64,000 nt of DNA from Spirochaetia bacterium (GTDB lineage: Bacteria; Spirochaetota; Spirochaetia; SZUA-6; Bin103). Position numbers and translations under genes: made by a program. The notes below the pieces were generated by a model that worked only from the letters and a program-made list of their open reading frames with translations, did not search any database and was not told where the DNA came from. Positions 32,930 through 44,310 of the stretch are shown in pieces (the first letter of the stretch is position 1; each line of letters opens with the position of its first letter). The DNA lies in the NCBI GenBank assembly GCA_965243545.1, contig OZ251573.1, positions 74,510-138,509 on the forward strand, given 5' to 3'.

Positions 32930-34345
32930 GTGGCTGACGTGCCGGGCGCCGCGGAGCGGTTCCGCGAAGAGACCGATTCGCTCGGCGCGGTGCGCGTGCC
33001 CGCCGGCCGCTACTGGGGAGCGCAGACGGAACGGTCGCGCAACAACTTCCGCATCGGCGGCGAGCGCATGCCGGTCGAGGTGGTGCGCGCCTTCGGCATC
33101 GTCAAGAAGGCGGCGGCGATCGCCAACGCCGAGATCGGCGTGCTTGGAGCGGAAACGCGTGACCTGATCGTGCGCGCCGCCGACCAGATCATCGCCGGCG
33201 AGCTCGACGACCACTTTCCGCTGGTCGTCTGGCAGACCGGCAGCGGCACGCAGTCGAACATGAACGCCAACGAGGTGATCGCCAACCGCGCCATCGAGCT
33301 GGCCGGCGGCGAGCTCGGCAGCAAGACGCCCGTCCACCCCAACGACGACGTCAACCGGTCGCAGTCGTCCAACGACACCTTTCCGACCGCCATGCACGTG
33401 GCCGCCGCGGCGGCGTTGCGCGGGCGCCTGCTGCCGGCCGCGGCGGCGCTGCAACAGGTGCTGGAGGCCAAGCGCGACGCGTTCGCGTCGATCGTCAAGA
33501 TCGGCCGCACGCATCTGATGGACGCCGTGCCGCTCACCCTGGGCCAGGAGTTCTCAGGCTACGCGGAACAGGTCTCGCGCGGCCGGCAGCGAGTCGAGCG
33601 CGCGCTGCCCGGACTGTACGAGCTGGCGCTGGGCGGCACCGCGGTCGGCACCGGGCTCAACGCGCCGCCGGGGTTTTCCGAGCGGGTGGCGGACCGGATC
33701 GCGCGGCTCACCGGCATCCCGTTCGTCACCGCTCCCAACAAGTTCGAGGCGCTGGCCGCGCACGACGCGATCGTGGAGACGTCCGGCGCGCTCAAGACGC
33801 TGGCGGCCGCGCTGATGAAGATCGCCAACGACATCCGCTGGCTCGGTTCGGGGCCGCGCTCCGGCCTGGGCGAGCTGCGGTTGCCGGAGAACGAGCCGGG
33901 CAGCTCGATCATGCCGGGCAAGGTCAACCCCACGCAGTGCGAGGCGCTCACCATGGTCTGCGCGCGCGTGTTCGGCAACGACACCGCCATCACTGTGGCC
34001 GGCGCGTCCGGCGCGCTGGAGCTCAACGTCTTCAAGCCGTTGCTGATCGACAGCCTGCTGCAGTCGACCCGGCTGCTGGCCGACGGGATGGCCAGCTTTA
34101 CCGAGCATTGCGTGGCCGGCATCGAACCGGACACCGGCCGGATCGCGGAGCTGGTGGGCCGGTCGCTCATGCTGGTGACAGCGCTCAATCCGCACATCGG
34201 CTACGACAAGGCGGCGGCCATCGCCAAGGCCGCCCACCGCGAAGGCGTCACGCTCCGCCAGGCGGCGATCCGTAGCGGCCACCTCACCGCCGACCAATAC
34301 GACCGATGGGTCCGCCCCGAACACATGGTGAGCGAGTCGCCGTAG
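32930..34345 (+). CDS. fumC: fumarate hydratase class II
   Basis: [20 protein letters not shown] (fumarate lyase signature), [23 protein letters not shown] 32930 is preceded by GAGG. Confidence 0.9.
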
Positions 34346-34364: not shown

Positions 34365-34943
34365 TCACGGCGCCGATGAACGGGCGGGAGCTTGGATGCG
34401 TTGAGCGAGATGGTCGAAGTCTTCCCGGCACTTCTGGCGAATCGCGCGAACGTTGCTGGCGGCCTCTTCTCCCAGACGCATGCGCCCTTTGCCCGGACCG
34501 TCGGCGACGCCCCGCTGCCGCGCCAGCACGGCGAAGTAGCGCTCCTTCACGGACACCTCGGCCCGTATTTCCGACCAGCGCCAATTGGACGGCAGCTTCA
34601 GTCCTGCGAGCGTCCAGGTTTCGAGCTCCTCCCATGCGTTTTCGGCCAGGAACCGTCGCCGTTCGCTGCCGAACTCCGCTTCGATATGATCGAGTCGGTG
34701 ACGGCGCGATGTTTCACCATCCCGGTCCACGCACAGGATGAACAGGTCGATCATCCCTTCGTAATCGTCGACGATCTCCCGTAGACATTCGTATTTCAGC
34801 GCCTCGCGGACGCCGCCGAGCAACGGATCACTGCAGACTTCAATGTCCGCCCGGATGTTCAGAGATCGAAAGAGCCGGCGAAACAGAGGGCGCAGGAGAT
34901 ACTGATCGTTGCGGAAGTCTTCCGGGATGATGAGCACTCTCAT
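34365..34943 (-). CDS. DUF4276-like protein with TOPRIM-type E…DxD signature (putative nuclease partner of the adjacent ATPase)
   Basis: MRVLIIPEDFRNDQ (conserved Glu), then about 65 aa later LFILCVDRDGETS (DxD), the TOPRIM spacing. The ATG forms an ATGA overlap with the upstream ATPase stop. GC is lower than in flanking genes. Confidence 0.65.
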   Translation of the reverse strand: MRVLIIPEDFRNDQYLLRPLFRRLFRSLNIRADIEVCSDPLLGGVREALKYECLREIVDDYEGMIDLFILCVDRDGETSRRHRLDHIEAEFGSERRRFLAENAWEELETWTLAGLKLPSNWRWSEIRAEVSVKERYFAVLARQRGVADGPGKGRMRLGEEAASNVRAIRQKCREDFDHLAQRIQAPARSSAP

Positions 34944-36211
34944 GAATCACGCTCGCCGTCAGCGTCCGAGCTGAACAGGATTGCGTTTTCCATCCAGTTC
35001 GACCGGTGGAGCCTTCCCAGGCCACGTGACCGGCGCAGTCGGTCCGCGTTGGGCAAGTCGGCCAGCGGGCGCACCACGGCGTCATCGGCGTCCGGCAGGC
35101 GGCATACGGCCGAGGTGTGCTTGAACGTGCGGTCGCCGACGAGCTCCAGCAGATCGGGCGAGTGGGTGGTGGTGACCACTTGGACATGGCCTTTCTCGGT
35201 CTGGTTTTCGATCAGGTCGATCAGCAGCCGCTGCCGCGCCGGGTGAATCCCGTTGTCGATCTCCTCGAACACGTACAGGCCGACAGGCTTGGGGCCGAGT
35301 AGAGCGGCCAGCATCGCGAGCATCCGCAACGTGCCGTCGGAGGCGGCATAGGACGATACGATCCGTCCGTTCCTCTCACGCAGTGCGAGCTGGATTCGTC
35401 CGGTTGTCGGATCGGTCGGAAACTCGAAGTCTACGACGTCCATCGGCGTCAACTCCCGTGTCCAATCGGTCAACGTGCGCTTACGTTCCGGGTCTGCGCA
35501 CACCGCTTTCAGCACCGTCGGCAGGTTCTCGCCTCGGTCACCCAACACTTTCTGTCCGGGAAACGCAGGTCGGCGCATGTGGTCCGGCGACAGGTCCAGA
35601 AACCGCATGTTGGAAAACGTCGTCGCGGCCTGCTCGGCCAACATCTTCTGCTGCCGGATAACGTGCTTGTGTTCACCGATCTGGCTCAGCGCCGGCTGGT
35701 CCGGCCTCACGGCGATCCGATGTCCGAGTTTCTTCTGATTCGGGCTTCTGCCCATACGGAGTAGCAGGTGATTGTGGTCGTCCTGATCTCGGACCCGATC
35801 TCCGGCGTCCGGATGGCTCGTGTAGATCGGTTCATAGCCTTCGACGAGGAGGCTCTCGACTTGAACAGTGAACACGCCCGCGTCCTCGGCACGGATGGAG
35901 ACCCCATAGGCAACCGGCACGTCGTTCAATCTCATGGTGACAAGCATGCCGAACGACGGCTGGCCGAATCTTGCGATTTCGTTCGGTTTACCGCGGATTG
36001 GTTGCCACTCGACTTGACCGCCGGCGCCGTACTTGCCGCCGATAATGTCCGCAAGCGCATACCCGCGCCCGATGCCGTGCAGGAACCGGAATGCGTCGCG
36101 GAGATTGCTCTTGCCGCTAGCGTTTGCGCCTACGATCACGGTGAACGGCCCTATAGCCAGCGTTTCGCTCACGAAGTTCTTGAAGTTGACCAGCTTCAGG
36201 GAGGTGATCAT
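34940..36211 (-). CDS. OLD/RecF-like ABC-type ATPase (AAA_21/AAA_15 family) of a two-gene defence module
   Basis: MITSLKLVNFKNF…IVGANASGKSNLRDAF (Walker A) … SDGTLRMLAMLAAL (signature-like) … LYVFEEIDNGIHP (Walker B) … TTHSPDLL (H-loop). It is intact at 423 aa. ATG 36211 is in the same frame as a truncated ygjP-like remnant upstream. Confidence 0.75.
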   Translation of the reverse strand: MITSLKLVNFKNFVSETLAIGPFTVIVGANASGKSNLRDAFRFLHGIGRGYALADIIGGKYGAGGQVEWQPIRGKPNEIARFGQPSFGMLVTMRLNDVPVAYGVSIRAEDAGVFTVQVESLLVEGYEPIYTSHPDAGDRVRDQDDHNHLLLRMGRSPNQKKLGHRIAVRPDQPALSQIGEHKHVIRQQKMLAEQAATTFSNMRFLDLSPDHMRRPAFPGQKVLGDRGENLPTVLKAVCADPERKRTLTDWTRELTPMDVVDFEFPTDPTTGRIQLALRERNGRIVSSYAASDGTLRMLAMLAALLGPKPVGLYVFEEIDNGIHPARQRLLIDLIENQTEKGHVQVVTTTHSPDLLELVGDRTFKHTSAVCRLPDADDAVVRPLADLPNADRLRRSRGLGRLHRSNWMENAILFSSDADGERDS

Positions 36212-36571
36212 TCTGGCGTTACCATCCTTACCAGTCCAGGCCGGGCCGCGTTGGCGAAGATCTTCGCGGCGGCGTTCGTAGTCGGGGAGGACGCGGCCGA
36301 CGGCCTGCCAGTAGTCGCGGCCGTGGCCGGGGTGGCGCAGGTGCGCCAGCTCGTGGACCACGACGTAGTCGACCAGGCGCATGGGAGCCTGGATGATACG
36401 CCAGTTGAGGCGGATGGCGCCATTGCGGTCGCAGCTGCCCCACCGCTTCCGCTGATTGGCGATCACGACGCGCGGCATCGGGACGCCGGCCTTGGCGCGC
36501 CACGCCGCCACCCGTTCCGGCAAGCGCTCGGCGGCGCGCCGGCGGTACCAGGCGACCAGGGCGGCGCGCAC
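36212..36571 (-). pseudogene. YgjP/WLM-like zinc metallohydrolase (DUF45) remnant, N-terminally truncated and read-through-fused in frame to the ATPase ORF
   Basis: …RKRWGSCDRNGAIRLNWRIIQAPMRLVDYVVVHELAHLRHPGHGRDYWQAVGRVLPDYERR is the HExxH-containing C-terminal two-thirds of a DUF45 protein. The N-terminal 60 or so residues are absent and no stop codon precedes the ATPase start. Confidence 0.5.
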
Positions 36572-36689
36572 GTGCGCCGTGAGATCCTCGTCGTCCGGCG
36601 CGGGGACGTGCAGCCAACCGCCGCGCAGTGTGGCGTCGCCTGTCGCGCCGGCCGTGACCTTCAGGCGATAGCGCCGGCCCAGAGTCGTC

Positions 36690-37688
36690 GGTAATCACAC
36701 AGTTGATCTGTTGGTTGGTGCAGCATCTCTCCCCGGCGATTCCGATCTTACCTATAGTTGAACCAATGCAGGTTACCATGACAGCTCCGGGTGGAATTTC
36801 ACGGACCTGAGAGAGACCTTCCTCCGAGACGTTGCGGCCGGTTATGTTGACTCTCTTGGTCCTTCCAAGATCGGCTGGCGTAACAAAAGGAATCGTACCG
36901 TTCCAGAAATCATGACTGCCAGTGCTCGGCGTACCTCCAGTTACCACTTTGCCAATTTCTCCAATGGTGTTTACGACCCACCCATTCTCGCCGGTCCCCG
37001 TCCTCTTGAATTGTGTGTGCCTTCCACGCAGGCTACGTGTAAAGAGTTCCTGCATCACGCCGCGCTTAACGATCTGCGCTTGGTCGACGGCCGCCTGAGT
37101 CTTCTCTATGGAATCATCCACCGAAGAAAGGACCGCGGCAATCTTGCGTTGCTCTTTCGGTGGAGGAAGCGAAAGCTCCAACGTGTGAAGGTCGGCTTTG
37201 CTCACCGCGGAGAACGTGCTCCCCTGAGAGACACGGACGAGATCAGGCACCGCCCGAGAAAGCGCATGCCACAGGAACGCCGGGTCCACTCCGTCCGCAG
37301 CTATAGCCGAAAGCCCTCGTCCGATCGCTAACTGTTCATGAGCTCGGTTCAGCGCCCCGACCGGAGCCCGAACGCTGAGAAGAATCGCGCCCTGCGCGGC
37401 CTGCTTGGGCGGATCGGTGCAGAACTTCGTGGGTCGCGGGCTTCTAAAGCCAAACTCGGCGTTACCCTGGACGAAAGGAAGTCCGATCCCGTCCTCATTA
37501 ACGGTAGTGGATGGCGGCGACTGGCCCATGGTGATAGCCGCAACCTCGCCGAGGAACGCCGGTACCCATGCCGGACCACTACTGCCGATCCGCCGACGGT
37601 GGATCATGCCGTCAAGGTTACCACAGGGCGGGCCGGCCTGGCCAAGGGCGTCGTAGAGATCGTAGAGGGGCCGCAGAGACCTTGCCAT
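36690..37688 (-). pseudogene. hsdS: type I restriction-modification specificity subunit HsdS, C-terminally truncated
   Basis: MARSL…WVPAFLGEVAAITMGQSP (TRD1) …LPPPKEQRKIAAVLSSVDDSIEKTQAAVDQAQIVKRGVMQELF (central conserved helix) …WVVNTIGEIGKVVTGGTPST…CIGSTIGKIG (TRD2). The frame then degenerates at about 36690 without the second conserved helix. It is AT-richer than the flanks. Confidence 0.65.
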
Positions 37689-37802
37689 GACGGGATGGGT
37701 CGGGCCGTTTTTCAGCGGAGCATGGACCGAGGGCGGCGGGTTGGTGTATACCGCCCACATCGTCTACCTGCTCCCAGAATCACCCGGCCCGGACGCTACC
37801 CG

Positions 37803-40800
37803 ATGATGCTCCCAGGCGGCTCCGCGAACAAGTTGGGCAACCGCTACGAGAAGTGGTGGACCGTGTCGCAGCTCGTCCGAATGCTGGGCGGCGAGGTGGA
37901 CGCTATCCGCATTGAAGACCCTGATGCGGAGAAGGCGGAGTTCGTTGTGACCGTGGGCTCGCGCAGGGAGCTACATCAGGTGAAACGGGTCGCCCCGAAA
38001 GACAATTGGACACTCACAGCGCTTAACGCCGACGGGCTCCTTCGGAAAATCGGCGAGCAGTTGGCTAACAACAACGTCCGGTTCGTCTTTGCGTCGGGTA
38101 GCGGCGCACGTCATCTGTCCAAGCTCTGTGACGCGGCGAATTCCGCGGAATCCACGGAGGAGTTCGAACGCTTCTCTCACGCAGCCAAGGAGGAGCGGAG
38201 TCAACCGTTCAAGAAGCTGCTTCTATACTCAGCGGGGAAGCCAGGGGTGTTGATAGTTGACCAGCTGGACGCGGTGAGCACCATGTCCGGCAGGGGCTCT
38301 GATGCGTTCGATCTGGTAGAACAGCTTCTACACGAGGCACGCGGAACGCGCGCGCGGGTCACAATCCACACGGTCGTTGTCTGTAGGGCCTTCGACTGGG
38401 AGCACGATCCGCGCCTCCGGAAGCTCATGCCTCCTGGGAAAGATCCCGTCGAAGTCACCGAATTCTCCGTGGACGAAGTGAAGACGATTCTCGCCAGAGC
38501 AGACTTCGATCTTGGACTGTTTCGAAGCCGTCAGTTGGAATTGCTGAGAGTTCCCCAGAACCTCTTGCTCTTCCTGGAGGCTGGATTTGAAAAGTCGCAC
38601 AAACCCGAGTTCGGTTCGGCGACGGATCTGTTCGATCGGTATTGGAACGAGAAGAGGCAGGCGGTCGCCGCACGGGTCGCGCAACCGGTGGATTATTGGA
38701 TGGATGTAGTGGACACGCTCTGCGACGAGATGACTGCCAATCAGCAGCTTTCGGTTCCGCGGGAGAAACTCGACAAGATTCCGCCGGCATACTTGGATCA
38801 ACTGGCATCGGAAGGCGTGCTCACTGTTGCCGGCAACCGCTACGGGTTTGGCCATGAGAGCTTCTTTGACTACTGTTTTGCGCGTGTGTTCTTCCGTCGG
38901 TCAGAATCGTTGGTGTCGTTCCTCAAGGAGTCGGAACAGCACCTGTTCCGTCGCGCCCAGGTGCGGCAGGTACTGGCGTATTTGCGTGACCACGATGCTG
39001 ACCGGTACATTCGGGAACTTGGTGGTTTGCTCGCAGACGCCGACGTCCGTACGCATATCAAAGACCTTGCCTTTGCCTTCCTCGCCGATGTCACGGAGCC
39101 AACCGAGCAAGAGTGGAACATCTGGAATGGGTGGATCCCGCCTGCGATAGAGGCCATCAAGGACGGAGCGCGAAACTCGAATGAGCTGTCAGTGCTCGCG
39201 TGGCGGCGATTCGCTGGATCACCGTCGTGGTTTGCGGATGCGAACCAGCGTGGCCTGATAAGGACATGGCTATCGTCAGGCAGCGAACGTCTCGCCGATA
39301 TGGCGGTGAGCTACCTGACCGGCCACCAGCGCCACTCGCCGGATCAAGTCGCCGCCATCATGGAACCGTACGCCGGTCGCGGCGGCGTGTGGGCGCAGAG
39401 GCTGCGCTCTTTAGTGGAACGAGCCCAGCACCACGCCAGTCGCCGCTTCTTTGATTTCGTTCTGCGTCTGGTAGCAAACGGCACGCTCGACGAGGCGCGT
39501 AGGCCGTCCGGGGCGGACGGCACGTTCTGGCGCATGTTCTACAACCTGGGCGAGGAGCGCCCTGAGTGGGTGCCGGAGCTTCTGGCCGATTACCTCCGGC
39601 GTCGCCTTGCGGTGGTCCGCCGTGGCGGCGATGTGGTGAATGAACGCATGATCGGCTACGACGACTACGCAGGACGGCTGTTTGCCAAATCGGCAGCAAG
39701 CGCTCCCGCCGAGTTCGTTCGGCGTGTGCTTCCTCCGGTTCTTGAAATTGCTGACTTGGCCGTGGTTGGTGACGAACGTCCGAAGCGGGACACCGTGTGG
39801 CCAACTCGCATAGCGACGGAACATCCCCGGGGCGACCAAGCGTGCGTAATGGGCTTGGCGAGCGCGTTGGCTGCCGTTGCAAGTCAGGAAACCGCGAGGC
39901 TACAGGATGTGGTCGGTGACCTGCGCCGTCGCGACACGTACATCGCGAATTATCTCCTGCTGTCTCTCTACGGCGGGGCTTCTGCGCGATACGCGGACGA
40001 GGCGGCGTTGTTACTCTGCGACGAACCGTGGCGATTTCAATGCGGATTTGCCGGCAGTTCGAATTGGTGCGCGGTAGAACTGATTCGGGCGATAGTTCCA
40101 CATTGCGCTACGAGCAATCGTATGCTACTTGAAAGAGCAATAATGGGTTACACATCTCGCTCGGAAGGTACCGTAGACGGCTTGAAGTACAGACAGATCG
40201 GGCGGGCGAGGTTCAACTTGCTCTCGGCGATACCCGGAGAACTCCGCAGCAGGCGCGCAAACTCCCATTTCGATGATGCAGAGGTTTCAAGCAGTCTCAA
40301 ACTCCGGGTCTGCGGCAAGGCGTTTGCTGAGTCGCGTGTGCACTGCGGTAGGGCGATCGCGGATGTTCTCGGCGCCATTGGAGATTTGCTTCCGGAGCGC
40401 GCAATCGGAATGCTCGACTGGCTCGCTACGGAACACGACGATCCAGTCAAGGAAGCGTGGAGGGAGGAGGCCGGTGGAGGCCAAAGCTACTACAACGGCG
40501 ACATCCACATGAACGGCATAAACACGGCGCGCGGGAGAGCAGCCGAAGCAGTTCAGGCTCTCATTCTGAAGGACGCCGCATACGTCACACGGTTTCGCCC
40601 GACTATTGAAAGGATGATACGCGATCGGAGCGCCGCGGTCCTCTCTTGTGTCGCGGGTACGCTCCGGGCGGTAGCGTCGCGTGACCCTGCGCTCGGTGTG
40701 TCGTTGTTCTTGCGGATGAATCTGGACGAGGAACGGTTGCTCGCAACTCGACACGTAACCGGGATGATCAGGAGCAATTTGCGGCACAGCCGAACGTATG

Positions 40801-40829
40801 ATCCGGTCGTCAGAACCGGAAGTCCGTGA
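37803..40829 (+). CDS. large uncharacterised protein: N-terminal PD-(D/E)xK-like (Mrr/DUF4297-type) nuclease-like domain, degenerate NTPase-like core, C-terminal HEAT/TPR-like alpha-solenoid (Avs/STAND-like architecture)
   Basis: N-terminus MMLPGGSANKLGNRYEKWWTVSQLVRMLGGEVDAIRIEDPDAEKAEFVVTVGSRRELHQVKRV (hh-ED … E-hh … QVK pattern). Then VRFVFASGSGARHLSKL (a P-loop-like segment lacking Lys) and GVLIVDQLDAV (Walker-B-like). A further 600 or more aa are Trp/Leu/Arg-rich helical repeats. ATG 37803 has a tandem ATG. It lies between the hsdS and hsdM remnants on the opposite strand. Confidence 0.55.
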   Translation: MMLPGGSANKLGNRYEKWWTVSQLVRMLGGEVDAIRIEDPDAEKAEFVVTVGSRRELHQVKRVAPKDNWTLTALNADGLLRKIGEQLANNNVRFVFASGSGARHLSKLCDAANSAESTEEFERFSHAAKEERSQPFKKLLLYSAGKPGVLIVDQLDAVSTMSGRGSDAFDLVEQLLHEARGTRARVTIHTVVVCRAFDWEHDPRLRKLMPPGKDPVEVTEFSVDEVKTILARADFDLGLFRSRQLELLRVPQNLLLFLEAGFEKSHKPEFGSATDLFDRYWNEKRQAVAARVAQPVDYWMDVVDTLCDEMTANQQLSVPREKLDKIPPAYLDQLASEGVLTVAGNRYGFGHESFFDYCFARVFFRRSESLVSFLKESEQHLFRRAQVRQVLAYLRDHDADRYIRELGGLLADADVRTHIKDLAFAFLADVTEPTEQEWNIWNGWIPPAIEAIKDGARNSNELSVLAWRRFAGSPSWFADANQRGLIRTWLSSGSERLADMAVSYLTGHQRHSPDQVAAIMEPYAGRGGVWAQRLRSLVERAQHHASRRFFDFVLRLVANGTLDEARRPSGADGTFWRMFYNLGEERPEWVPELLADYLRRRLAVVRRGGDVVNERMIGYDDYAGRLFAKSAASAPAEFVRRVLPPVLEIADLAVVGDERPKRDTVWPTRIATEHPRGDQACVMGLASALAAVASQETARLQDVVGDLRRRDTYIANYLLLSLYGGASARYADEAALLLCDEPWRFQCGFAGSSNWCAVELIRAIVPHCATSNRMLLERAIMGYTSRSEGTVDGLKYRQIGRARFNLLSAIPGELRSRRANSHFDDAEVSSSLKLRVCGKAFAESRVHCGRAIADVLGAIGDLLPERAIGMLDWLATEHDDPVKEAWREEAGGGQSYYNGDIHMNGINTARGRAAEAVQALILKDAAYVTRFRPTIERMIRDRSAAVLSCVAGTLRAVASRDPALGVSLFLRMNLDEERLLATRHVTGMIRSNLRHSRTYDPVVRTGSP

Positions 40830-41382
40830 AGCTGGCGCACGCATGGTAAGCCTTGCCGCGTTGGAAAAACAAAGTGCAGCGGATCTCGAGGACGAGGTGT
40901 TGCGTGGTGACGTCAGTCACCGGCTTGGCGTCGCTCAGGTCGCTTCCGCTAACATAACGTTGACCGATTGTCGAGCGTGGTGTGAAGCGAGGATAGCGGT
41001 CCTATTCAACGATAGCGATGCGCGCGTCCGGCGCGAAGCGGCGTCATGTTTCTCTCGGTTGACAGATGATGAGGCCCTCGACACATACAACGATCTGATC
41101 ACGGCGTTTTGCGAGAGCGCGGCGTTCGAGAGCGGCTCGCTCTGGCTCGTTAGCGCACTGGAGGAATCGTTGGAGCGTCTTCCGGGGATGACGTGCATGG
41201 TCTGTGAACGGTACCTTGATCGTGGCGCCGGCGAGAGGTTCGATGTCGCCAAACTCATATTTCGGACGTACCAGCAACATCAGAACGACGAATGGACAAG
41301 GCCGTCGTTGGACCTGATAGATCGCCTGTGTCTGGGGCGGCATCTCGGGGCGGAGCACGAGCTGGAGCAGTTCGATCGGTAA
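40798..41382 (+). CDS. HEAT-repeat-like fragment; probable frameshifted C-terminal continuation of the preceding large gene
   Basis: …SEPEVREAGARMVSLAALEK…NDSDARVRREAASCFSRLTDDEAL… (HEAT-like s.d.VR..Aa..L units). It overlaps the upstream ORF by 32 nt in the +1 frame. Confidence 0.35.
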   Translation: MIRSSEPEVREAGARMVSLAALEKQSAADLEDEVLRGDVSHRLGVAQVASANITLTDCRAWCEARIAVLFNDSDARVRREAASCFSRLTDDEALDTYNDLITAFCESAAFESGSLWLVSALEESLERLPGMTCMVCERYLDRGAGERFDVAKLIFRTYQQHQNDEWTRPSLDLIDRLCLGRHLGAEHELEQFDR

Positions 41383-41533
41383 GCGGGAGCACGGACGACT
41401 TTGAGCGCGGGCGGCGCAGTGCGGTAGGGCTGATGGACTACGGGTGGGTGTGCTCGGCGCGATGCGGCCGCGGCTGGTAGGGGCAGTGACCAACGCGCGG
41501 TCAGCAATCGGCTGCAACACAACGCGGCGGCGC

Positions 41534-41826
41534 ATGGACCAGGAGCGGCGGTTGGTGTACACTGCCTACATGGCCTACACCGACAGGATCACCATCGAGC
41601 CGGGCAAGCGTGGCGGCAAGCCCTGTATTCGCGGGATGCGGATGACGGTATACGCATTCGCGGGACGCGGGTCACGGTAATCGAAGTACTCGAATCCCGC
41701 GGCTCGGGGATGACGCAAGAACAGACTCTGGCGAACTTTCCGGACCTGCAAGCGGCCGACGTTCAGGCATGCCTGGAGTACGCCGCGGACCGCGAGCGCA
41801 AGATGGTGGCGATCCCGCGGGAGTAA
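41534..41826 (+). pseudogene. DUF433-family (antitoxin-like) gene disrupted by a 29-nt diverged tandem duplication
   Basis: Frame 1 reads …AYTDRITIEPGKRGGKPCIRGMRMTVYAFAGRGSR then a stop. The next frame, from 41656, reads IRGTRVTVIEVLESRGSGMTQEQTLANFPDLQAADVQACLEYAADRERKMVAIPRE then a stop. Removing copy 1 (41627-41655, attcgcgggatgcggatgacggtatacgc, versus copy 2 attcgcgggacgcgggtcacggtaatcga) restores an intact DUF433 protein. Confidence 0.55.
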
Positions 41827-41941: not shown

Positions 41942-43012
41942 ATGAGTACGCTCCAAGAGCAGGTAACGGATCTGAGCTACCGGACCGATCGACTGGAAGT
42001 GCTGTGCGAACGGCTCCTGGACAGCATCGATCAGACCGTCCGGGAAATGAAAGCGGAAGGCGCCAGAGACCGGGCGGCAGCTGCGCGAGCACGAGAGGAA
42101 GACCGGGCGGAAGCTGCCAGAGCACGGGCGGAGGACCGGGCGGAAGCTGCCAAAGCGTGGGAAGCGGCTGCCAAAGCACGAGAGGAAGACCGCGCGGAAG
42201 CTGCCAAAGCGCGGGAGGCGGCTGAGCGAGCGCGGGCGGAGGACCGGGCGGCAGCTGCGCGAGCACGAGAGGAAGACCAAGCGGAAGCTGCCAAAGCACG
42301 GGAAGCGGCTGAGCGAGCACGGGCGGAGGACCGGGCGGAAGCTGCCAAAGCGTGGGAAGCGGCTGCCAAAGCACGAGAGGAAGACCGGGCGGAAGCTGCC
42401 AAAGCACGGGAAGCGGCTGAGCGAGCACGGGCGGAGGACCGGGCGGAAGCTGCCAAAGCACGGGAAGCGGCTGACAGAGCGCGAGAAGCGGCTGACAAAG
42501 AACGGAAAGAGGACCGGAGGGCGTGGAACCGGCGCTGGGGTCGGTTAGCCAACAAGATGGGCACCGTCGTGCAGGACATCGTCGCTCCGAGCCTGCAGCG
42601 TATCGCGCGCGACGAATTGAACTGCGGCGAGGAACAGTCCTTCAGCGTCTCCGTGTCCCGCTACCGTAGCGATGACCGGCACTACCGCCGCGAGTTCGAC
42701 GCGCTCTACGTCGGGGCGCGCGGGGTGCTGCTCAACGAGACCAAGTCCACGGCCCACAGCGAGTATGCAACGCGCTTCGTCCAGTTCCTGAAAAGCGGTG
42801 AGTTCGCGCTCTACTTCCCGGAGCACCGGCATCTGAAGCTGGTGCCGGTGTTCTCGTCGCTGCGTCTGCCCGACCATCTGATCCCGTTTCTGACCAAGAA
42901 CGGAATCTATGCGGTGAGCATGGGCGAGGAAACGATGCAGGTGCTCAATCGGGATGCGATAGCCGCCCGCGAGCGCAACTCGCCCGCTGCGTCCGCCGGC
43001 AGCGTGAAGTAA
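41942..43012 (+). CDS. coiled-coil protein with C-terminal PD-(D/E)xK-like nuclease domain (DUF3782-like)
   Basis: MSTLQEQVTDLSYRTDRLEVLCERLL…, then about 150 aa of AEAAKAREAAERARAEDR-type repeats encoded by 33/66-bp periodic DNA repeats at 42040-42500, then REFDALYVGARGVLLNETKS (D … E-x-K) and a further conserved C-terminal segment. Confidence 0.6.
   Translation: MSTLQEQVTDLSYRTDRLEVLCERLLDSIDQTVREMKAEGARDRAAAARAREEDRAEAARARAEDRAEAAKAWEAAAKAREEDRAEAAKAREAAERARAEDRAAAARAREEDQAEAAKAREAAERARAEDRAEAAKAWEAAAKAREEDRAEAAKAREAAERARAEDRAEAAKAREAADRAREAADKERKEDRRAWNRRWGRLANKMGTVVQDIVAPSLQRIARDELNCGEEQSFSVSVSRYRSDDRHYRREFDALYVGARGVLLNETKSTAHSEYATRFVQFLKSGEFALYFPEHRHLKLVPVFSSLRLPDHLIPFLTKNGIYAVSMGEETMQVLNRDAIAARERNSPAASAGSVK
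42040..42500. repeat. 33/66-bp periodic coding repeats (coiled-coil region of the DUF3782-like gene)
   Basis: Repeated gaagctgccaaagcacgggaagcggctgagcgagcacgggcggaggaccgggcg-type units. On the opposite strand they generate the spurious ORFs 41763-42461 and 42031-42579. Confidence 0.7.
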
Positions 43013-43064: not shown

Positions 43065-44310
43065 TCAACCGACGTCATATCCGAGCTCTGCCAGGTAGCG
43101 GTTCATCGTTGCCTCGGCGGCGGCGCGCTCGCGCTCCAGCTCCCGCAGCTTGCGCACGGCGTCCGCCACGTCGATCCGTTCCTCCTCGTCGGCGTTGTCC
43201 ACGTAGCGGCTGATGTTCAGATTCCAGTCGTTTTCTTCGATCTCGGCGACCGGCACGACCCGTGCGTACTTCTGTACGTCAGCGAAGGCGTGGAACGTGC
43301 CGGCGACGTGTTCGACGTCCTGCTGGCGCAGGCGGTTCTGGTTGCTGCCCTCCTCGAACTCGGCGGAGGCGTCGATGAACAGCACCTTGCCGCGGCGCGG
43401 CGCCGGCTTGTCCCGGTTGAGCAGCAGGATGGAGGCCGGGATGCCGGTGCCGTAGAACAGGTTGGGCGCCAGGCCGATCACCGCCTCGAACAGGTCCTCC
43501 CGGAGCATCCCCTGGCGAATCTTGCCCTCGGCGCCGCTGCGGAACAGGACGCCGTGCGGCATCACCACGCCGAGCCGGCCGGTCCGGTTCAGCACCGCCA
43601 CCATGTGCTGCACGAACGCCAGGTCGCCCTTGGTCTTCGGCGGCAGGCCGAACCGGAAGCGCCCGTACCCGTCGCTCTCGGCCACCTCGCGGCCCCACTC
43701 GTCCAGGCTGAACGGCGGATTGGCGATCACCCGGTCGTATGCGCGGCGTGTAGAACTCGCCGCCCTTCTTGCCCGCGTCGTCGGCGAACTGCTTGATCAG
43801 GTACTCGTAAGCGCGGCCGAGCAGATCGGGCTCCGCCATGCGGTCGTTGCGGAGCGAAACCTGCGAGAAGTGCTGCACCAGCCGGGCCAGCACGGTGTCG
43901 CGGTTGCGCGCGTCGCCGAGCTTGCGTTCGTCGTTGAAGTCGATACCGGCGAGCACGCCCTCCAACGCGGCGTTCTGTTCCTCCAACGCCGAGCACGCCT
44001 TGTTGAGGGTCTCGCCGATGTCGGCGGCCGCGGCACCGATGGCGCCCCACCGCGCCCGCTTCGGCACGAAGAACTGGTGCTCGTCCGGATCGGTCCGGGC
44101 CGCGTCCGCAGGCACGCCGTCGGCGATCAGCTTCTCCGCCTCCTCCTCGAACCGGTCCGACAGCCGCTTCAGGAACAGCAGGCCGAAGATGTAGGTCTTG
44201 TAGTCGCTGCTGTCGATCGATCCGCGCAGGATGTCGGCCGCCGCCCAGAGGTACTGTTCGAGCTGCGCCACGCTCAGCACGCCGGCCGCCGGCGCGGCCG
44301 TGTTCCGCAC
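43065..44310 (-). pseudogene. hsdM: type I restriction-modification methyltransferase HsdM with internal deletion of the catalytic core (frameshifted)
   Basis: The N-terminal frame reads …LSVAQLEQYLWAAADILRGSIDSSDYKTYIFGLLFLKRLSDRFE…LLGRAYEYLIKQFADDAGKKGGEFYTPR (HsdM_N plus the start of the methylase). Immediately afterwards, in another frame, it reads (Y)DRVIANPPFSLDEW…VLFIDASAEF…NLNISRYV (motif IV to the C-terminus). About 130 aa, including the AdoMet motif I, are missing between them. Confidence 0.7.

Follow-up and report, generated by a model that had tools for sequence, protein, structure and literature searches.

Type I restriction-modification (R-M) loci can carry guest genes such as prrC and rloC, and PrrC guards EcoprrI. 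A big gene in the same kind of place is described here. It lies in a stretch of 64,000 nucleotides of a Spirochaetia bacterium (assembly GCA_965243545.1, contig OZ251573.1, positions 74,510 to 138,509 of the forward strand), which is called the window below. The gene is found between hsdM and hsdS in the window and in the locus of its closest homologue, L001. In other genomes the family gene follows hsdS directly or stands between hsdS and hsdR. PrrC and RloC are ABC-ATPase anticodon nucleases, whereas the family of this gene combines a predicted DNA nuclease with a STAND NTPase and is an unrelated protein. A PrrC/RloC-type identity was rejected because the fold is unrelated. The two overlapping open reading frames (ORFs) that form the gene in the window are very probably a recently eroded pseudogene of a widespread single-gene family of ~1,500 amino acids (aa) with the architecture of antiviral STAND (Avs) proteins.

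The closest described systems are Avs3 (SeAvs3, PDB 8dgc) and Avs7, antiviral receptors built of a Cap4 nuclease, a STAND NTPase and a repeat sensor; the sensor is only putative in the family. In Avs3 and Avs7, binding of a phage protein by the sensor releases the ADP-bound NTPase, ATP leads to a tetramer, and the Cap4 nucleases cut DNA (PMC13581612). The Cap4 nuclease of Avs7 is activated by this ATP-driven tetramerisation (PMC13581612). The family differs in that no sequence homology to Avs3 or Avs7 was detectable, the PADLOC Avs models were silent, and its C-terminus matches HEAT and not TPR repeats. The family nuclease is also set apart from Cap4, LmuA and HamA by its partner, which is a fused STAND NTPase and not a SAVED, SMC-like or helicase partner. 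Neither the Pfam Cap4 nuclease profile nor DUF4297 matched the N-terminal 266 aa at E ≤ 10, and this likeness is at the level of the fold only.

PDC-M54A was the sole match of the family in the defence libraries (E 1e-11 to 1e-21). The lengths (~1,620–1,657 aa) and the offset of the NTPase are similar, but the match covers only profile positions ~320–690 of ~1,620 at 38–74 bits, leaves the N- and C-termini unmatched and is therefore not a full-length one. PDC-M54 is a multi-gene candidate, whereas the family has no constant partner.

Erosion of the Window Copy

ORF1 runs from 37803 (ATGATG) to 40829 on the + strand and encodes 1,008 aa from ATGATG, where all the homologues begin (MLPGG...). 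From the first possible start it covers 37338–40829 and 1,163 aa, and the automated annotation gave one protein of this length (P0001) with no problem flagged. ORF2 (40798–41382, 194 aa), in the +1 frame, shares 32 nt with the end of ORF1. An earlier note on this DNA, made from the sequence alone, had given the same coordinates and overlap, and the peptide strings it quoted (AIRIEDPDAEKAEFVVTVGSRRELHQVKRV, GSGARHLS, LIVDQLD and DARVRREAASCFSRL) are all present in the translation. Its description of the ORF as intact did not survive comparison with the closest homologue, P0002 (1,498 aa, 91% identical, on L001), against which the window copy carries three deletions. The tblastn search of P0002 against the window returned four high-scoring segment pairs (HSPs), which skipped residues ~139–333 and ~1020–1120 and changed frame between 1294 and 1303. 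The parts of the window copy are the following.

37803..38222, + strand: N-terminal core of a Cap4-type PD-(D/E)xK nuclease domain, ~140 aa, alpha-beta-beta-beta-alpha-beta (tblastn, P0002 residues 1–138, 72% identity)
38223..38228, + strand: junction of deletion 1 (MAFFT DNA alignment with L001; tblastn HSP break at P0002 138/334)
38229..38940 (end approximate), + strand: STAND NTPase remnant, from Walker B (VLIVDQLD) through the helical and winged-helix domains (93% DNA identity to L001)
38941..40276, + strand: first part of the C-terminal region, a putative sensor (tblastn, P0002 residues 334–1019, 91% identity)
40274..40277, + strand: junction of deletion 2 (tblastn and DNA alignment with L001)
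40277..40790, + strand: C-terminal region continued, up to the frameshift (tblastn, P0002 residues 1121–1294, 88% identity)
40790..40792, + strand: junction of deletion 3 (DNA alignment with L001; ORF overlap)
40792..41382, + strand: C-terminal ~196 aa in the +1 frame (tblastn, P0002 residues 1303–1498, 97% identity; Pfam HEAT, E 9.7e-5)

Deletion 1 removed 579 bp at 38228 (~193 codons, P0002 residues ~140–333) and left a 6-nt filler, CTATAC, in their place in the MAFFT alignment with L001. The nuclease domain was left with only its first ~140 residues, its rear half being lost; the linker helix went as well, and the NTPase lost strand 1, Walker A and helix 1. Deletion 2 removed 312 bp at 40274 (104 codons, P0002 residues ~1020–1123) within the C-terminal region; its in-frame ends both show GATG microhomology in L001. 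Deletion 3 removed 23 bp at 40791 with the codons LSELRPLV, shifted the frame, created the 32-nt ORF overlap and brought the stop of ORF1 to 40827–40829. The frameshift suspected in the earlier note is real and comes from the loss of 23 bp that the closest relative retains, not from a single-base slip; a single-base sequencing error as its cause was rejected. The other length changes between the window and L001 (+3 and −9 bp, the latter an in-frame gap at 39910 in the C-terminal region) are harmless.

The two large in-frame deletions and the frameshifting one of 23 bp occur in the window copy alone. In the consensus of 83 homologues all three lost segments are present, with FAELRPIV at the position of deletion 3. 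A scan of ~185,000 species genomes found 79 loci with ORFs of ~4.5 kb, and in a search of 1.8 billion representatives the full-length ones placed their residue ~335 opposite window residue ~143. Since the consensus, the 79 full-size loci and the full-length representatives carry the segments, the direction of change is loss in the window. The window gene is not colinear with its full-length homologues, whose best local alignment covers only ~68% of the window query, and it carries both a frameshift and the loss of core motifs. The deletions took away 61 of the 336 positions conserved at ≥97%. A decayed pseudogene, the outcome that the earlier note had itself set against its proposal, is what these deletions and the frameshift point to.

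The window allele should be inert, because the switch needs the P-loop and the initial strand and helix of its nucleotide-binding domain both to bind ATP and to fold. The rear nuclease half, the interdomain helix, the P-loop core and 104 residues of the putative sensor are lost, and the last 196 residues are out of frame. The window copy is almost certainly dead.

The synonymous substitution rate (dS) between the window gene (37803–41382) and its counterpart in L001 (1522–6018) varied about tenfold, from 0.42 over codons 1–135 to 0.04 at the C-terminus, with ~0.13 in between. Such variation suggests a recombinant, mosaic history of the gene. Truncated or stop-interrupted copies were also seen elsewhere (L038 9995–12217, L073 541–2413 and L071 ~5016), and erosion of the big gene is therefore not unique to the window.

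Fold and Conserved Residues of the Intact Family

AlphaFold2 models were made of P0002 residues 1–630 (predicted local distance difference test score, pLDDT, 82.8) and residues 1–250 (pLDDT 84.0). The best Foldseek matches of the 630-aa model in the PDB were Avs3 (8dgc, 4.7e-12) and then Avs4 (8dgf, ~1e-10), with generic AAA+ proteins, CED-4 and Orc ranked below them. The N-terminal domain alone matched LmuA (2.2e-6), HamA (4.5e-6), the Avs3 N-terminus (8e-6, template modelling score 0.58) and several Cap4 structures, all of which are anti-phage effector nucleases. In the model of the intact homologue this domain is built of helix 13–27, strands 33–36, 46–50 and 53–60, helix 78–87 and strand 92–97. 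Even homologues of 30–40% identity share E15, E37, Q58 and K60 without exception, and E45 almost without exception; these residues lie on helix 1 and strands 1–3. The window core keeps the equivalents of E15, E37, E45 and Q58-x-K60 (RYEKWW, IRIED, KAEF and HQVK). The N-terminal PD-(D/E)xK motif proposed in the earlier note was essentially right in its residues and fold, with only ~140 residues of the domain left in the window.

In the family, Walker A (GxAGxGKT) and Walker B (hhhhDQLD) are invariant; a helical domain and a winged helix come next and include an invariant His. LIVDQLD, taken as Walker B in the earlier note, is the true motif: D344, Q345, L346 and D347 are invariant across the 83 homologues, as is H542. 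The segment GSGARHLS had been taken for a degenerate P-loop. It aligns with FASGSDARDLS of P0002, which forms strand 92–97 and helix 102–113 of the nuclease domain in the AlphaFold model and contains the invariant S97. The degenerate P-loop was therefore discarded, and with it falls the idea of a non-canonical member, which rested on this mis-assigned motif. The true Walker A (GRAGVGKT, P0002 residues 272–279) lies inside the 579-bp segment absent from the window. What remains of the NTPase in the window includes the family signature RYGFGHESFFDYCFAR.

About 900 aa follow the winged helix. This region matched only HEAT (24.8 bits in P0002 against a cut-off of 23.5), HEAT_2, Cnd1 and Adaptin_N, and judged from these profile matches it is probably an alpha-solenoid sensor. 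A HEAT-like repeat, DARVRREAASCF, is found in the C-terminal +1-frame part of the window copy; the HEAT-like repeats of the earlier note are weakly supported by this ORF, and no TPR match was obtained for its TPR alternative.

The family has the Avs architecture of a Cap4-type nuclease, a STAND NTPase and a long C-terminal region that is probably a sensor. The intact homologue has an N-terminal defence effector, a nuclease, as in the Avs class. The STAND NTPase of that class is present in the family and broken in the window gene, which has lost Walker A along with the initial strand and helix. Of the Avs-like order noted earlier, the nuclease and the NTPase are borne out for the family, with Avs3 and Avs4 as the top structure matches and a long C-terminal region with HEAT-like matches behind them, and not for the window copy. 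The label of candidate novel defence gene holds only for the intact relatives elsewhere.

By sequence, the family could not be joined to a named Avs family. Its profile hit only an adenylate kinase P-loop among all PDB chains (E 0.043), with no Avs chain at E ≤ 1 and no solved structure. Around the P-loop, the sequence libraries gave sub-threshold matches to NACHT, AAA_16, nSTAND1 and AAA. Pfam, NCBIfam and PADLOC assigned the window ORFs to no named family; the only matches were PDC-M54A on the NTPase remnant (E 5.5e-14) and weak, noise-level ones to the NCBIfam EruA NACHT region and Pfam nSTAND1. The EruA match (NF058535, 17.6 bits, E 8e-4, profile positions 67–202) missed the curated cut-off of 1000 bits. 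The full-length homologues had no NF058535 match at E ≤ 0.1 and nothing above noise in NCBIfam. No relevant literature was found on EruA as an antiphage protein, on PDC-M54 or on the family, whose members the source databases label "AAA family ATPase" or "hypothetical protein". At the level of sequence, the family is without a name in Pfam, PADLOC and NCBIfam and is not a member of any named family searched. The 2026 census of STAND proteins (PMC13581612) may already count it as one of its 198 clades associated with defence.

Distribution and Genomic Context

More than 1,600 homologues were found, virtually all of ~1,500 aa. Grouped at 50% identity, the family made up 3,407 clusters at a threshold of E ≤ 1e-3, of which 1,019 reached E ≤ 1e-30. 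It is patchy over more than 10 phyla, and almost all members come from metagenome-assembled genomes (MAGs), including Latescibacterota, Gammaproteobacteria, Alphaproteobacteria, Binatia, Acidobacteriota, Spirochaetia, Rhodothermales, Gemmatimonadota, Verrucomicrobiota, Chlorobi and others. Identity across phyla is often 60–66%, and horizontal transfer of the family is therefore indicated. From the record titles, we take the lineages of many of the closest homologues (Latescibacterota, Binatia, Tectimicrobiota, Rhodothermales, Gemmatimonadota and the Langseth MAGs) to be typical marine-sponge symbionts, and the identities among the close homologues suggest spread within one habitat. Distant members with 25–27% identity over the full length are carried on plasmids of Rhizobium, Sinorhizobium and Isosphaeraceae. 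No homologue was found in the phage genome collection.

All-against-all clustering of the ORFs within 10 kb at 82 loci revealed no constant partner gene. Type I R-M genes were the commonest neighbours, and of the 82 loci, 25 have an HsdM-like methyltransferase, 16 have HsdS and 12 have HsdR. With X for the family gene, the order hsdR-hsdM-hsdS-X-AAA21 was seen in five loci (L003, L006, L007, L012 and L022), and hsdM-hsdS-X-hsdR in three (L035, L058 and L061), with a gap of 0–46 bp after hsdS. The other immediate neighbours included ResIII helicases, AAA_21/AAA_15, N6_N4 methyltransferases, AbiJ, BrxL, Type ISP and integrases, together with ordinary metabolic genes. An association with defence islands, as in the Avs class, is seen at ~16–25 of the 82 loci, which lie beside type I R-M, these being raw counts. 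Such surroundings are what one expects of a mobile single-gene defence system. The guest position in a type I R-M locus proposed in the earlier note accordingly recurs in the family, beside or inside R-M operons; its comparison with PrrC and RloC fails as to the kind of protein.

Proposed Mechanism

The intact family most likely works like Avs3 and Avs7. We infer its anti-phage role, trigger and oligomerisation by analogy with these two proteins. The C-terminal region would bind a phage-derived protein and so free the ADP-locked NTPase. Binding of ATP would then drive oligomerisation and unite the nuclease domains of the family. The assembled nuclease would degrade DNA and abort infection.

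A more specific version would make the intact family an Avs whose new HEAT-like sensor is wired to type I restriction, as a backup that senses anti-restriction proteins or the loss of R-M, much as PrrC does for EcoprrI, in place of a phage structural protein. It starts from the repeated insertion of the gene into the operon, between hsdS and hsdR or directly behind hsdS at 0–46 bp. We consider this version unlikely.

Alternative Explanations

Several observations weigh against a pseudogene of a defence family, and three other explanations draw on them. The ORF of 1,008 codons is still open, and only one of the three deletions disturbs the reading frame, so that the gene could in principle be a shortened variant maintained by selection. 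It would then be a non-canonical Avs without a P-loop, serving as a decoy, a scaffold or a nuclease that is constitutive or under different regulation. The residues of the nuclease core are kept, and substitutions at the remaining conserved positions are not in excess (9 of 275 in the window copy, 8 of 336 in its intact sister). Pairwise ratios of nonsynonymous to synonymous substitution (dN/dS) are 0.33–0.44 and not 1. A functional KpAvs8 with degenerate Walker motifs has been reported, so loss of the ATPase alone is no proof of death (PMC13581612). This caveat is weaker here, where the structural core is physically deleted and not merely mutated. Deletion 1 removes ~193 residues over two domains, among them a strand and helices of the Cap4-like domain and the initial strand and helix of the nucleotide-binding domain, and the C-terminal 196 aa are out of frame; the same architecture is absent among 120 close matches, 79 genome loci and 150 representatives. 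The upstream 97-aa gene of L001 is also absent from the window, so an upstream promoter may have been lost, and the surrounding R-M genes are broken as well. A functional variant is thus highly improbable, and the erosion of the pseudogene is seen as recent because the conserved sites show no excess of changes and because of the pairwise dN/dS. P0002 and P0003 were observed to carry 8 changes at otherwise nearly invariant positions. Hardly credible, in turn, is an artefact of assembly or consensus in a metagenome-assembled genome whose real gene is intact. The window does come from an assembly of an uncultured lineage: FumC is 98% identical to metagenome proteins and only ~70% to named taxa, from which we take the source to be an uncultured high-G+C lineage known from assemblies only. 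The annotation also passed P0001 unflagged. Assembly errors are usually homopolymer indels, however, and not clean losses of 579, 312 and 23 bp. One junction has filler and another has 4-nt microhomology, four neighbouring genes have independent lesions, and in a contig of 4.6 Mb the region is not at a fragmented, low-coverage edge.

The defence role of the family is drawn from its architecture and context only. A housekeeping or regulatory STAND NTPase with an inactive nuclease-like N-terminus, beside R-M genes by coincidence, would fit the ~70% of loci with no R-M gene within 10 kb and the metabolic genes among the neighbours, including those around a distant plasmid homologue in Rhizobium phaseoli. 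It would also fit the mean column identity of 69% among the top family matches, which is unusually high for an immune sensor, and defence and non-defence STAND clades are known to be interspersed (PMC13581612). We nevertheless regard this explanation as very unlikely. The invariant acidic, Gln and Lys residues fit a PD-(D/E)xK nuclease, and the best domain matches (LmuA, HamA, Avs3 and Cap4) are all anti-phage effectors. Insertion between hsdS and hsdR or after hsdS recurs on the same strand and in the same operon, and the family is patchy across phyla and found on plasmids, with no conserved partner or regulon.

Surrounding Locus

The window has a G+C content of ~70%, with a stretch of lower G+C (58–67%) at ~34–45 kb. 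L001 is syntenic with the window: after hsdS (−) come three + strand genes, the first of 97 aa, then the big gene and one of 364 aa, and the locus ends in the 3′ tip of hsdM. The neighbours of the big gene in the window are listed below.

34365–34943, − strand: DUF4276-like gene, 192 aa (Pfam DUF4276, E 0.005, sub-threshold)
~34940–36211, − strand: AAA_21 ATPase, apparently intact, start ~36211 at MITSLKLVNF (Pfam AAA_21 1.7e-34; PADLOC PDC-M07A 3.9e-64)
~36250–36571, − strand: C-terminal fragment of a YgjP-like metallopeptidase (Pfam YgjP-like profile positions 101–206 of 207 only)
36635..37604 (bounds approximate), − strand: hsdS remnant (Pfam Methylase_S 4.6e-24; PADLOC Specificity_I 4e-39)
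41942–43012, + strand: gene of ~356 aa, syntenic downstream (counterpart in L001 6456–7550, 364 aa)
43065..44310, − strand: hsdM pseudogene (HsdM_N and N6_Mtase profile)

Remnants of hsdS and hsdM on the minus strand on either side of the big gene had been recognised before and were recovered here by their profiles. The hsdS remnant keeps the N-terminal target-recognition domain and the central region; its 3′ end is gone and its frame continues into unrelated sequence. Two HsdS proteins covered only 36654–37328 of the window by tblastn. The hsdM gene is split, with HsdM_N and N6_Mtase profile positions 3–32 in one frame and positions 130–310 in another; positions 33–129 (~97) are absent at ~43730–43740. 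No hsdR was found in the 64-kb window, and no tRNA genes were found at the island borders. We take the gene to have entered this genome as a guest cassette, placed between hsdM and hsdS and oriented opposite to them, as in L001. The locus has decayed since then, with an internal deletion in hsdM, truncation of hsdS, absence of hsdR, and loss of 579, 312 and 23 bp from the big gene.

The ~356-aa gene contradicts the claim of the earlier note that the big gene is the sole large intact ORF on the + strand. Its N-terminal half consists of Ala/Arg/Glu-rich tandem repeats (periods 33, 54, 87 and 108 bp at 42053–42509), and the 171 aa of its conserved C-terminal domain match the L001 neighbour at 95% identity. 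The string EFDALYVG...LLNETKS in this domain is a possible PD-(D/E)xK motif, judged by its residues. Among the loci compared, the 364-aa neighbour is confined to L001 and the window, and the 97-aa neighbour to L001; neither has a Pfam match. A 78-aa ORF at 41444–41680 (+) contains YTDRITIEPGKRGGKPCIRGMRMTVY and resembles by eye a truncated DUF433 (antitoxin-like) domain. Bases 41531–41654 within it are 96% identical to L001 6231–6355.

Beyond hsdS, the YgjP-like fragment is joined in frame upstream of the AAA_21 ATPase ORF (34365–36571 neighbourhood) and is presumably a relic of an R-M-associated ygjP gene. The AAA_21 ATPase and the DUF4276-like gene look like a candidate two-gene defence pair; they are context separate from the big gene. 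The gene for FumC, the fumarate hydratase, lies at the left island edge (32951–34345, +), and the named taxa closest to it are Acidimicrobiales and Actinomycetota MAGs.

Implications

The automated 1,163-aa call P0001 should be treated as a pseudogene, and the locus as a graveyard of an R-M system and its guest gene. The intact family members P0002 and P0013, the latter encoded on a Latescibacterota chromosome, are reasonable candidates for the phage-gene co-expression screens that assign Avs triggers. If the family were a backup wired to R-M, the window copy would be the fossil of a guarded R-M module.

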